Origin: Escherichia phage teqhad
DNA: 64,000 bases
Sequence record: NC_054933.1
Direction: 5' to 3' (one strand)
Position 1 is the first letter of the stretch. Each line of letters begins with the position of its first letter. The position numbers and the translations under genes are program-made. This document shows positions 883-14,528 of the stretch, one piece after another. A model generated the notes under the pieces. The model ran no database searches, had not been told where the DNA came from, and saw only the letters and a list, made by a program, of their open reading frames with translations.

Positions 883-1070
883 TATTCTTCTACATGTTGT
901 TTACGACCTTTCTTATCAATAAAGGTATATTCAACGAATGTTCCAATGTAGTCTTTATCTACATCATGTGGACTATTAATTGGACATTTAGTACGGCAAA
1001 TGCGTTCCCATTGACGAATAATTTCCACTTTGTTTTTAGGATCAAACGGATGTGGGTAATGTACTTTCAT
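858..1070 (-). CDS. small hypothetical protein (70 aa)
   Basis: ORF track; sits in the compact overlapping minus-strand gene run. Confidence 0.45.
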   Translation of the reverse strand: MKVHYPHPFDPKNKVEIIRQWERICRTKCPINSPHDVDKDYIGTFVEYTFIDKKGRKQHVEEYCLKVTWL

Positions 1071-1521
1071 AATCCACCACTATTAAATCAATATCAGGAG
1101 TAAACATGTCGATTAATTTAGAAACCTTATCCCAATCGCCGCCAGCAATACCACAACCTATGCGTGGAATGTAAATTACCGGTTTAAACAAAAGGGTTTC
1201 TGCCTGTAGATTTAATTCTATCATGCAGTTTACTAAAGCACCATAATCAAGATTAGGACCCGGTTCGTATTGCGTATACAAATTATAGCATATACTAAAT
1301 CCTGTGGGATTATGTTTAAAAACAATAGACATATCGCCTAATTTATCACGAGAACCGTACTCAGTAGTGGTTTTATCTATTTCTAAAATTTTGGGATAGG
1401 CTCTTGCTAATTGACCAGCTACACCTGAACCCATAGTATGAAAACAATTGCACCCGTGCGCAATAATATTACCTTGAAGAAATAGGGCGACAATATCGCC
1501 CTTGATATATTTTACAATCAT
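1042..1521 (-). CDS. macro-domain protein (putative ADP-ribose / O-acetyl-ADP-ribose hydrolase)
   Basis: 159 aa; GDIVALFLQGNIIAHGCNCFHTMGSGVAGQLARAYP and IPRIGCGIAGGDWDKV resemble macro-domain ligand-binding loops. Confidence 0.6.
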   Translation of the reverse strand: MIVKYIKGDIVALFLQGNIIAHGCNCFHTMGSGVAGQLARAYPKILEIDKTTTEYGSRDKLGDMSIVFKHNPTGFSICYNLYTQYEPGPNLDYGALVNCMIELNLQAETLLFKPVIYIPRIGCGIAGGDWDKVSKLIDMFTPDIDLIVVDYESTLPTSV

Positions 1522-1859
1522 CTAGTACTCAATCCTCGATTATAAGAATCTACCAAACGGTCAACCATTGAATGACAAGCGGCTTTATCTTTCTCCTCCG
1601 CAACTGAACATTCTAAGGTATTCCACTTTTTAGCATATCGTTTTAACAATGTATCATTTTTGTATCTGCTTGATTTATCTCTTTCTCCGTCTTTATATGC
1701 ATATATTAATTTCTGCGCAAATTCAGCTTGGCATGCTTTATTTTTCCCGCAATAATCCGCTGCAGTACGGTTTACATACTCTCTAATTTCAGTATATGAT
1801 GTATCTGCTAACGCAGAAAATGAAATTAATCCTATACATAAAACCAAAATTTTAGTCAT
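1518..1859 (-). CDS. secreted or periplasmic cysteine-containing small protein
   Basis: N-terminal signal-peptide-like MTKILVLCIGLISFSALA; 4 Cys; overlaps the SLT gene start. Confidence 0.55.
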   Translation of the reverse strand: MTKILVLCIGLISFSALADTSYTEIREYVNRTAADYCGKNKACQAEFAQKLIYAYKDGERDKSSRYKNDTLLKRYAKKWNTLECSVAEEKDKAACHSMVDRLVDSYNRGLSTR

Positions 1860-2397
1860 TTACTATTTCCAAAAGTTTATTATTTTTAAGGTAATTAGCC
1901 TTTTCTAGGACTTCAGAAGCATATTTAGAACCTGCTTTAACATTCCATCCCGAATTATAAGAGGATATTGCTTTTCTTATATCGCCCTTATGTATATTTA
2001 ACCAATAAGAAAGTTCAATGTACGCCCAGGAAGCTGAATTGGACCGTTTATTCAACATTCTTTTTATTTCAGCATCGGTCATATTATAACCAAGTTCCTT
2101 AACTCTTGCTCGCATAGTAGGCAAATAATTTTGGAACATTCCATAAGCGTGATGCTTTGGTTTAGATTTTAAATTAACTCCGCCAGAGCTTTCTTGCCAT
2201 AAAATAGCAGCCATTATATGACCCAATCCGCTCTTGTGGATATTTTTGTGTGTTTTATATTTTCCATCCTTAGAAAATTGTTCCCCGAATTGATACGCGT
2301 AACGCATGTTATCGAGTTGGACATTACTGAAAGTATGCTCGGAGCTATGTGCCATCATTGAAATGGCCAATAGACCAGCGAGTAGTGCTTTTCTCAT
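1852..2397 (-). CDS. secreted soluble lytic transglycosylase (SLT) family protein
   Basis: Signal peptide MRKALLAGLLAISMMAHS; catalytic-type ESSGG motif and AYGMFQ motif typical of family-1 lytic transglycosylases. Confidence 0.65.
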   Translation of the reverse strand: MRKALLAGLLAISMMAHSSEHTFSNVQLDNMRYAYQFGEQFSKDGKYKTHKNIHKSGLGHIMAAILWQESSGGVNLKSKPKHHAYGMFQNYLPTMRARVKELGYNMTDAEIKRMLNKRSNSASWAYIELSYWLNIHKGDIRKAISSYNSGWNVKAGSKYASEVLEKANYLKNNKLLEIVND

Positions 2398-2404
2398 GCT
2401 TACC

Positions 2405-2866
2405 TCATTGAGTTTTAATTACTGCTTTAGAAGCCTTTCCTGGTAAACGACGACTGTTGATAATTGCCATCCTGCATTGAAGTGACGGGTCTTTGAACTT
2501 CTCATTAGGCTTACAAACCGTAAATCCAAGCCAAAGATTTCCATCTGTGATTTCTAAACGTCCAGGACGATATTCAACCCCATCAATAAAATCCTCGTCA
2601 ATGTCAGGACGCGGAGGCATACTCAGGAATTCATTAACTTCTAAAACATGGTCTTTTATTTTATGGAATAATTCAAAAACATATGTCTCATCAATCTCCC
2701 GTTGAATTGCACGATCAAGAAGATGTTGAGAATATTTTAGATGAAACGATGAGACTCCTGCTGCTTTTGATGCCTCACGAATCTCATTGTTAATTTGACG
2801 AAACTCCGACTCAAAGTGACGACGAAGCTTATTTCGACGGATAAAAACTTCTGTATTGATAGTCAT
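2405..2866 (-). CDS. regB: RegB sequence-specific endoribonuclease
   Basis: 153 aa, begins MTINTEVFIRRNKLRRHFESEFRQ; matches T4 RegB as recalled. Confidence 0.9.
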   Translation of the reverse strand: MTINTEVFIRRNKLRRHFESEFRQINNEIREASKAAGVSSFHLKYSQHLLDRAIQREIDETYVFELFHKIKDHVLEVNEFLSMPPRPDIDEDFIDGVEYRPGRLEITDGNLWLGFTVCKPNEKFKDPSLQCRMAIINSRRLPGKASKAVIKTQ

Positions 2867-2925
2867 GTTGTTCTCCTCTTAACTGATAGAAAAATTATAC
2901 CACAGTCAAGAGGAAAAGTAAACAG

Positions 2926-3204
2926 TTATTCTTTAAATCTAATCAATTTATTCATAGACTTTGAAACTTCTGCACGAACCTCATGTAAGTTTTTAAGCTG
3001 TTCAAGACGCTGCTCATAGTAAGCAATTTCATCTTCTTCGAGACAGTCCTGTGAATCTTCTTTAAGATAGCGTGCATAGTCCTGGAAAGCTTTACGGACT
3101 ACTTCCTGGAAGTCATCAAGACTTTGAATTTTCTTAGGAGCGGCAGATACACGACGAGGGGCAGTATAATACTCATAACCAAACCCTGCACTTAATTGAG
3201 CCAT
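2926..3204 (-). CDS. hypothetical protein (start set at the internal [11 protein letters not shown]...)
   Basis: ORF track 2926..3246; the track start looks like a non-ATG extension. Confidence 0.4.
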
Positions 3205-3206
3205 TA

Positions 3207-3506
3207 TTATTTTTCCTCTGGTTGGAACACTGCACGACAAGCCCACATACTGGCTTCTTTGAGTTTCGTTTTAGCAATAGTTAACTGATCGAGGCTTTCG
3301 GCATAATTCTTCGCGAATTCACAATCTTCACAATTATCTAGTGCTTCCCAGAATTCATCATACAAAGCATCAAAGATAAGTCCTAAACGAACTTCAGCGT
3401 CTTTGATAGCATTCACTTTACCGATTTTCTCTTCAGTATGTGGTTTATAACCCTTAATATCTTCAATCATATTTGACTTCCTCACCAGTACATAAATCAT
3501 ATTCAA
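3207..3506 (-). CDS. hypothetical protein
   Basis: ORF track; CEDCEF motif; true start possibly the internal MIEDIKG. Confidence 0.4.
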
Positions 3507-14342: not shown

Positions 14343-14528
14343 TTATTCACCTTTAGAAATTTTATCCATAACGATAGCAATTAAACCAATTAAAAATGCT
14401 ACTACAAGTGAAAAAACATTTTCTGCTGTAGTCAATAATCCGCATATAAATCCAACAAACATTGAAAAACTAAAAGCAGAAGCAGAAATTGCAATAGCAA
14501 CATTTCGAATTAATTCACAACGTTTCAT
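14343..14528 (-). CDS. small two-helix membrane protein (61 aa)
   Basis: Hydrophobic helices AIAISASAFSFSMFVGFICGLL and VVAFLIGLIAIV. Confidence 0.5.
   Translation of the reverse strand: MKRCELIRNVAIAISASAFSFSMFVGFICGLLTTAENVFSLVVAFLIGLIAIVMDKISKGE

Follow-up and report, generated by a model that had tools for sequence, protein, structure and literature searches.

Two overlapping open reading frames (ORFs) on the minus strand of the Escherichia phage teqhad genome (NC_054933.1), which correspond to the bacteriophage T4 genes vs.1 and vs, appear to encode a pair of proteins that leave the cytoplasm together. The window analysed here is a stretch of 64,000 nucleotides (nt) of this genome. With somewhat better than even confidence, we read the pair as an early, co-exported periplasmic module composed of a murein-cleaving enzyme, Vs.1, and a small disulfide-stapled partner, Vs. 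The genes vs.1 and vs are themselves ordinary, annotated and already known T4 genes. The point of interest is an unremarked clash between the annotation of Vs, as a modifier of the host valyl-tRNA synthetase (ValRS), and the sequence of Vs, together with the strength of the linkage between vs.1 and vs.

Judged by their sequences, the two ORFs are T4 vs.1 and vs. The larger (1852..2397, minus strand, in the ORF list of the window) encodes a precursor of 181 amino acids (aa) and 20.7 kDa, which matched phrog_600 (E = 2e-68) and is 100% identical to T4 Vs.1 (UniProt P13311). The smaller (1518..1859, minus strand, in the same list) encodes a 113-aa precursor of 12.9 kDa, which matched phrog_1256 (E = 5e-40) and is 99% identical to T4 Vs (UniProt P13310), the differences being a 2-aa indel and one substitution that fall only within the signal peptide. 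The window is a Tequatrovirus (T4-like) genome, its bases 900–3300 showing 99% DNA identity to many Escherichia phages, and the gene order denV ... regB - vs.1 - vs - tk.4 ... tk is that of T4. The vs start codon lies inside the stop region of vs.1, creating an 8-nt overlap (ATGACTAA, 1852..1859, minus strand) in which vs.1 ends ...AAT GAC TAA and vs begins ATG ACT AAA. A weak Shine-Dalgarno-like GGAAAT is found 8 nt upstream, within vs.1. The two ORFs and their overlap are as the first-pass annotation of this DNA described them; it read them as a translationally coupled pair of exported proteins comprising a transglycosylase and a Cys-containing partner. It was right that the partner looks like an exported Cys protein, and it overlooked that this protein is T4 Vs.

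Signal peptides were called with a simple heuristic rule set for n-, h- and c-regions, not with SignalP. Both proteins have a positive n-region, an uncharged hydrophobic h-region of 10–15 residues and small residues at -3/-1. The N-terminus of Vs.1 can be laid out as MRK-ALLAGLLAISMMA-HS with cleavage before SE or equally as MRK-ALLAGLLAISMMAHS with cleavage before SEH, an AxA-type site, and its predicted Sec signal peptide covers residues 1–18 (MRKALLAGLLAISMMAHS before SEH; 2344..2397, minus strand), a segment modelled as a detached helix of low predicted local distance difference test score (pLDDT). The N-terminus of Vs has the layout MTK-ILVLCIGLISFSALA before DTS, again with an AxA-type site, and its predicted Sec signal peptide likewise covers residues 1–18 (MTKILVLCIGLISFSALA before DTS; 1806..1859, minus strand). 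The rule set was selective in the window, as only 3 of 116 ATG-initiated ORFs of at least 60 aa passed it, vs and vs.1 being two of them, and these were the only two to pass among the 27 annotated T4 genes of the region. The third passing ORF (14343..14528, minus strand, 61 aa) begins with charged residues that give way to a long hydrophobic stretch, and its product is predicted to be a small membrane protein. Both the score and the h-region hydrophobicity of Vs and Vs.1 were above those of RI and Spackle, two T4 proteins that have been found experimentally to be periplasmic.

The signal-like character of these N-termini was retained across 52 distinct Vs/Vs.1 pairs, in which each N-terminus was always signal-like despite a sequence that was not conserved; in the aligned Vs.1 homologues the N-terminus was hydrophobic yet variable. 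The signal-peptide-like N-termini noted in the first-pass annotation are therefore borne out by the rule set and by their conservation in kind. In the Enterobacter/Cronobacter phages myPSH1140 and Pet-CM3-4 (Karamvirus-type lineage), a canonical lipobox, MKKLFVLLVVVALSGC (ALSGC followed by K), replaces the signal-peptidase-I site of Vs. Vs-like proteins with this lipobox occur at four of the loci that we surveyed (L040, L041, L044 and L056), where the protein is a predicted lipoprotein. The exchange of a signal-peptidase-I signal for a lipobox would be sensible only for an extracytoplasmic protein.

The linkage between the two genes was surveyed at 58 loci containing vs.1 with a hidden Markov model (HMM) built from a combined set of T4-type and divergent Vs sequences. 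A Vs-like ORF was located directly downstream of vs.1 in 55 of the 58 loci, and at 52 of these 55 the junction between the two genes fell between -8 and +3 nt, with -8 in all close relatives. Among the other junctions, an extra ORF separates the two genes in Lw1, and a frameshift affects one locus. This agrees with the translational coupling proposed at first pass, as the tight arrangement of the pair is conserved. In Krischvirus JEP8, Pseudotevenvirus Lw1 and Acinetobacter phage Mokit, the ORF downstream of vs.1 is 108–119 aa long and carries a signal peptide, four Cys and a C-terminal Y/F-x-x-G-L motif. When these divergent forms were aligned by hhalign with the T4-type Vs alignment, the match had a probability of 97.7% (E = 1.9e-12) and brought all four Cys into register; a database search showed that proteins of this divergent type already bear PF26829 as well. 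The pair was also kept where its neighbours differ, as in Mokit, which has a segB-like gene upstream and other exported proteins plus rI downstream. The run in Mokit (L005, 1780-3647) consists of vs.1, the Vs-like gene, two small ORFs with signal-peptide-like or transmembrane-like N-termini and the antiholin gene rI, five predicted exported proteins in all.

Plain tblastn returned Vs matches in 794 phage records and Vs.1 matches in 2044. These counts would suggest that vs.1 occurs mostly without vs, an interpretation that we rejected as an artefact of fast Vs divergence, which the profile search of the loci corrected. Vs diverges far faster than Vs.1; pairs in which Vs.1 shares 60–75% identity have Vs at 28–57%. 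Gene calls are affected as well. In Edwardsiella phage PEi20 (L003, NC_028683, 2353-2700), only a 54-aa C-terminal fragment is annotated as ‘vs’, yet the sequence directly after the vs.1 stop encodes Vs in full (115 aa, signal peptide included), so that the short call is an annotation artefact. The family phrog_38498 (54 aa) probably gathers truncated Vs calls of this kind.

After removal of its signal peptide, Vs.1 is predicted to be a protein of 163 aa (18.8 kDa, isoelectric point (pI) 9.65) without Cys. An HMM search matched residues 61–154 (1936..2217, minus strand) to the Pfam SLT domain (PF01464) at 25.1 bits against a gathering cut-off of 21.3 (E = 1.4e-5), and a precomputed PF01464 assignment is present on several Vs.1 homologues. 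We aligned 61 homologues of Vs.1, down to 40% identity. E69 of the QES motif, the predicted catalytic residue (GAA codon, 2191..2193, minus strand), G86 and Q89 of GMFQ, and Y147, N148 and G150 of SYNxG were invariant in this alignment, and S70 and S71 were at least 90% conserved. A helix at residues 25–38 is specific to the family, with Q27, N30 and G38 invariant. The ESSGG and AYGMFQ motifs on which the first-pass annotation had based its transglycosylase call are present in the protein (as WQESSGG and AYGMFQ), and the call of an SLT domain has gained from the Pfam match and from the invariance of the catalytic Glu and of two further motifs.

The AlphaFold2 (AF2) model of Vs.1 has a pLDDT of 89, except that residues 1–20 form a detached helix at pLDDT 55–57. 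Residues 61–154 appear to adopt a lysozyme-like fold of the GH23 type in this model, whose top Foldseek matches in the PDB, at modest scores (E about 1e-2, TM-score about 0.5), were MltD, Slt, the GH23 chitinase Ra-ChiC and g-type lysozyme. A sequence-profile search of the PDB with Vs.1 gave no match at E < 0.01, and NCBIfam gave no matches for Vs or Vs.1. We believe that Vs.1 is, as predicted from its domain match and motifs, a divergent GH23/SLT protein, and that it is probably a murein-cleaving lytic transglycosylase using Glu69. The SLT homology of vs.1 is already known and has been in print since 2003/2006; the match was reported in six T4-like genomes, citing the earlier T4 genome review (Nolan 2006, PMC1524935).

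The partner, Vs, belongs to PF26829 and phrog_1256, families that are everywhere labelled ‘valyl-tRNA synthetase modifier’, and PF26829 is precomputed on all 50 profile hits of Vs. Predicted mature Vs (1521..1805, minus strand) has 95 aa, a mass of 11,048 Da and a pI of 8.9, and its AF2 model (pLDDT 74) is a four-helix bundle with helices at residues 3–19, 23–41, 51–66 and 71–94. The precursor contains five Cys, of which C8 lies in the signal peptide and is not conserved, and the mature protein contains four: Cys37 (1749–1751), Cys43 (1731–1733), Cys84 (1608–1610) and Cys95 (1575–1577, all codons on the minus strand). The four Cys counted at first pass for the 113-aa protein thus hold for the mature form and not for the precursor. 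In the AF2 model, Cys37 and Cys43 flank the loop between helices 1 and 2 (loop 1), and Cys84 and Cys95 flank the loop between helices 3 and 4 (loop 3). All four mature Cys are conserved throughout, with an intra-pair spacing that varies (X5, X6 or X10 in one pair and X8 or X10 in the other). Because of this variable spacing, we favour two disulfides stapling the helical hairpins over a metal or zinc site. The window Vs was also considered as a lipoprotein and rejected, since its ‘LVLC’ lacks G, A or S at -1 and Cys8 is not conserved.

A search of 1.8 billion proteins for distant non-phage relatives of Vs returned five representatives at 50% identity and no bacterial family. A broad Vs profile gathered 50 clusters, all of PF26829; every named source was a phage and the unnamed ones were short metagenomic contigs. 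One match was labelled A. baumannii and is on a 169-kb contig. On these searches, the Vs family appears restricted to T4-like phages. The structural neighbours of the Vs model were not informative, and none of them matched any inhibitor. N-terminally His-tagged Vs has been found to be insoluble (PMC8076793), which agrees weakly with the export picture.

Published T4 data sets treat the two genes alike. In time-resolved omics, vs and vs.1 were both classed as early RNA/middle protein, and both proteins were detected (PMC9697503 supplement). In the transposon study HIDEN-SEQ (bioRxiv 10.1101/2025.11.20.689424), no T4 gene was more depleted than vs when M9-glucose was compared with lysogeny broth (LB), and a clean knockout confirmed the defect; the authors call the role of ValRS modification unknown, and their main text does not mention vs.1. 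Data S8 of that study lists mean transposon reads per TA site in LB and M9. For vs, these were 26.6 in LB and 5.0 in M9 (log2 fold change -2.19, adjusted p about 0), and for vs.1 they were 22.6 and 11.9 (log2 fold change -0.87, p = 0.0055, adjusted p = 0.16). The corresponding values for the neighbours were 179 and 403 for regB (log2 fold change +1.17, adjusted p = 0.80), 290 and 275 for tk.4 (-0.07, adjusted p = 1.0), 652 and 626 for vs.3 (-0.06, adjusted p = 1.0) and 265 and 262 for vs.4 (-0.02, adjusted p = 1.0). Insertions in vs and vs.1, and only in those two genes of the block, were depleted about 10-fold in LB, with a further drop in M9, and the same two-gene dip was seen in other T4 transposon libraries. 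Both genes are non-essential, 30 of 32 TA sites in vs and 46 of 52 in vs.1 having been hit. The insertion data thus give vs and vs.1 a shared fitness signature without counterpart in their neighbours. Strong transcriptional polarity is argued against, because regB insertions were not depleted. Elsewhere in Data S8, insertions in nrdA, nrdB and td, as well as in regB, were enriched in M9 relative to LB, and those in regA were depleted.

From these results, we propose the following course of events. The two genes would be transcribed early on a regB-vs.1-vs-tk.4 message, and the 8-nt overlap suggests that their translation would be coupled. Each product would next be exported by the Sec pathway and cleaved after its AxA-type site, as the conserved signal peptides suggest. 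In the periplasm, mature, basic Vs.1 (18.8 kDa) would act as a GH23/SLT murein-cleaving enzyme, probably as a lytic transglycosylase via Glu69, and mature Vs (11.0 kDa) would fold into four helices, its two helical hairpins stapled by Cys37–Cys43 and Cys84–Cys95 disulfides. Synteny and the shared fitness signature further suggest that both proteins may act, before lysis, in one periplasmic process on the host sacculus, in which Vs might serve as a co-factor, a targeting factor or a regulatory partner rather than as a simple inhibitor. This last step is the least certain. Vs and Vs.1 are not the lysis enzymes.

A number of points weigh against this proposal. The export of Vs and Vs.1 is a heuristic prediction. 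The Foldseek matches of Vs.1 are weak (E = 8e-3 to 0.2, TM-score 0.45–0.54), and GH23 also includes hydrolytic lysozymes and a chitinase, so that Vs.1 could be a transglycosylase or a hydrolase. The partnership of Vs with Vs.1 is predicted from synteny and the shared fitness signature, and is the part of the proposal we hold with least certainty. Tight packing and overlap are general in this T4 block, which makes the overlap alone weak evidence of partnership. Three vs.1-like loci, in Aeromonas phage 31, Det7 (Ackermannviridae) and a Felixounavirus, have no Vs-like gene. Insertions in vs.1 could be depleted because they uncouple the translation of vs, a polar effect, and the M9 defect of the vs mutant might equally be expected of a tRNA-charging factor under amino-acid limitation. 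As to the first of the three loci, Aeromonas phage 31 (L004, 2405-3096) carries a 75-aa ORF and a 146-aa lipoprotein-like ORF (ORF105c, with a C-X10-C pair) between vs.1 and tk.4, and ORF105c may be a non-homologous replacement of Vs.

The most serious objection is topological, as a Vs that binds cytoplasmic ValRS, as in the classical annotation, conflicts with a periplasmic Vs. Purified tau, the peptide to which the modification of ValRS is ascribed, reportedly modifies purified ValRS in the classical work. There are possible ways out of this conflict: the assignment of the ORF to tau may be wrong, a non-exported cytoplasmic pool of Vs may moonlight on ValRS, or processed Vs may meet ValRS after cell breakage. 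In the 1970s literature tau is reportedly a peptide of ~10 kDa, to which the 11.0 kDa of processed Vs comes closer than the 13.1 kDa of the precursor; if that figure holds, tau would have passed signal peptidase. We can extend our proposal, tentatively and with rather more doubt than belief, to say that Vs in vivo is a Sec-exported, disulfide-bonded periplasmic partner of Vs.1, that the modification of ValRS comes from another ORF or from contact after breakage, and that vs.1-vs is a conserved envelope-remodelling device of the Straboviridae whose loss explains the M9 defect. Full-text searches, which did not take in the classical vs/tau papers or Miller 2003, turned up no publication that connects ‘synthetase modifier’ to a signal peptide or to the periplasm.

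If the classical annotation is instead taken at its word, Vs is a cytoplasmic peptide (tau) that binds or alters host ValRS, its N-terminus is no export signal or an inefficient one, and Vs.1 is an unrelated periplasmic enzyme whose gene is adjacent because of dense packing. This account draws on the universal annotation of the Vs family and on a vs knockout whose defect is specific to minimal medium, a setting in which the charging of tRNA could be important. It would also accommodate the fitness data and the gene arrangement, as vs.1 insertions could be polar on vs, and vs overlaps tk.4 as well, making overlap generic in the block. However, it leaves unexplained a Sec-type signal peptide kept in 52 distinct orthologues despite an unconserved sequence and turned into a lipobox in one lineage, four conserved Cys in loop-stapling pairs of variable spacing, and a vs gene that stays beside vs.1 even when other genes take the flanking places of regB and tk.4. 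In the sequence record, the 1986 entry X04567 gives vs only as ‘ORF 60.9’ and vs.1 as ‘ORF 61.4’; the linkage of the ORF to the genetically defined vs therefore came later. For these reasons we consider a purely cytoplasmic Vs unlikely, although it is the main rival to our proposal.

The first-pass annotation had suggested that the smaller protein might be an inhibitor. In that case, Vs would be a periplasmic inhibitor or immunity protein that restrains the muramidase Vs.1 (compare Spackle and the Ivy/PliG/LprI-type inhibitors), and the harm done by losing Vs would come from an unchecked Vs.1. Several observations are in keeping with this, namely the shared predicted compartment, the coupled gene order of an enzyme followed by a small partner, the much faster evolution of Vs than of Vs.1, and the likeness of Vs, which is predicted to be helical, to Spackle as a small protein with a signal peptide and Cys. 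In M9, loss of vs also costs the phage more than loss of vs.1. However, insertions in vs.1 should then be neutral, whereas in LB they were as depleted as those in vs (22.6 versus 26.6 reads per TA site, with neighbours at 180–650), and they were lower still in M9. Vs also shows no sequence similarity to Spackle or the LprI family and no structural match to any inhibitor. We therefore regard a restraining role for Vs as improbable, and the inhibitor suggestion fits the data poorly.

A role for the pair in lysis or its timing, as an accessory device made up of a second, secreted endolysin and its regulator, is very improbable: Vs.1 is a predicted secreted murein enzyme, the Mokit pair sits in a run of exported proteins ending at antiholin rI, and the Felixounavirus homologue, annotated ‘putative lysin’, adjoins rIIB, but vs.1 and vs belong to the early RNA/middle protein class, are non-essential with near-saturating insertions, are flanked in the window genome by regB and tk.4 and not by t or e, and show none of the marks of a lysis cassette (late expression, holin or spanin linkage, need for lysis), and e, t, rI, rIII and the spanins suffice to explain how T4 lyses its host. 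The first-pass annotation correctly set the pair apart from endolysin e; its further suggestion of a role in lysis timing finds no support in the expression class and dispensability of the two genes.

If Vs is a periplasmic partner of Vs.1 as we propose, the consequences reach beyond this phage. The label ‘valyl-tRNA synthetase modifier’ has spread over hundreds of phage genomes, as seen from the 794 records with a Vs match, and it is attached to a protein that bears the predicted marks of a secreted, disulfide-bonded periplasmic protein and that is tied across genera to a murein-cleaving enzyme. A textbook T4 function would then need re-examination, the minimal-medium phenotype of vs would need an explanation in terms of the cell envelope, and T4-like phages would own an unrecognised early peptidoglycan-remodelling module. 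Labels in GenBank have drifted further: vs is often called ‘valyl-tRNA synthetase’, the enzyme instead of its modifier, and vs.1 appears as ‘endonuclease’, ‘RegB’, ‘rI antiholin’ or ‘C-type lysozyme/alpha-lactalbumin family protein’.

The surroundings of the pair are compact on both sides. Upstream, the regB endoribonuclease gene (2405..2866, minus strand; Pfam REGB_T4, E = 8e-69) ends 7 nt ahead of vs.1, inside the GAGGT Shine-Dalgarno sequence of vs.1 (2402..2406, minus strand), which overlaps the regB stop codon (TGA, 2405–2407). Downstream, the start of the macrodomain gene tk.4 (1042..1521, minus strand; Pfam Macro) overlaps the vs stop by 4 nt (ATGA). The product of tk.4 has been named AdfM (anti-DarT factor) and protects T4 against the DarTG2 defence system (bioRxiv 10.1101/2025.11.20.689424). 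A sigma-70 promoter-like site upstream of regB (TTTACT-17-TATAAT with an extended TG, 2894..2922, minus strand), a consensus match only, probably marks where early transcription of regB-vs.1-vs-tk.4 begins; the region held 9 promoter-like sites against 9.1 expected, with no excess over chance. An internal promoter between regB, vs.1 and vs was rejected, as the sole match (2240..2213, inside vs.1) was at chance level, and the coding strand showed nothing resembling a terminator between these three genes. Inside the 5' end of tk.4, 20–37 nt past its start, lies a perfect inverted repeat rich in G+C, AGGGCGATATTGTCGCCCT (1484..1502, both strands), which is followed on the minus strand by a T-rich tract and so has the look of a terminator. 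Terminator-like sites in the region numbered 5 against 1.4 expected, and that in tk.4 was the sole one on the coding strand. This element could attenuate transcription after vs or could structure the translation start of tk.4.

The nearest known system is the vs.1/vs locus of T4 itself, in which the order regB-vs.1-vs-tk.4 and the 8-nt overlap are the same as in the window. The window Vs has a signal peptide two residues shorter than that of T4 Vs, with one substitution, and nothing else differs between the two proteins. Among proteins resembling Vs, T4 Spackle (sp) is likewise a small T4-encoded protein with a signal peptide and Cys, and is periplasmic according to the T4 record. Spackle is reportedly helical and disulfide-bonded, and is said to be paired with a murein hydrolase, the gp5 lysozyme. 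It differs in that its target is a virion enzyme of the superinfecting phage, encoded elsewhere, whereas Vs is encoded beside its putative partner, and in that the genetics of vs.1 and vs argue against pure inhibition. Homology of Vs to Spackle was rejected, hhalign giving a probability of 0.4% with no similarity beyond the signal peptide.

The LprI/DUF1311 domain (PF07007; YecT in E. coli) is comparable to Vs as an exported or lipoprotein domain of ~100 residues, and is all-alpha with conserved Cys pairs, which we took as a lead only. Homology to it, suggested by the Cys pattern and an ‘LDxAY’ motif, was also rejected. None of 22 Vs-like sequences matched PF07007, although YecT did at E = 1e-17, and when the Vs profile was compared with YecT by hhalign the probability was 0.25%. 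Vs.1 can be compared with the family-1 lytic transglycosylases (Pfam SLT, GH23). As in that family, Vs.1 has the E-S, G-x-x-Q and Y-N-x-G motifs, here in a single predicted SLT domain in ~160 mature residues behind a signal peptide; its helical, lysozyme-like model comes nearest, at modest scores, to MltD and Slt. Small Sec-exported ‘specialised’ lytic transglycosylases are found in secretion and conjugation systems (VirB1, EtgA, IpgF and P19). Vs.1 differs from the family in being very divergent, in having its own N-terminal helix, and in being an early, non-virion phage protein without an associated envelope-spanning machine.

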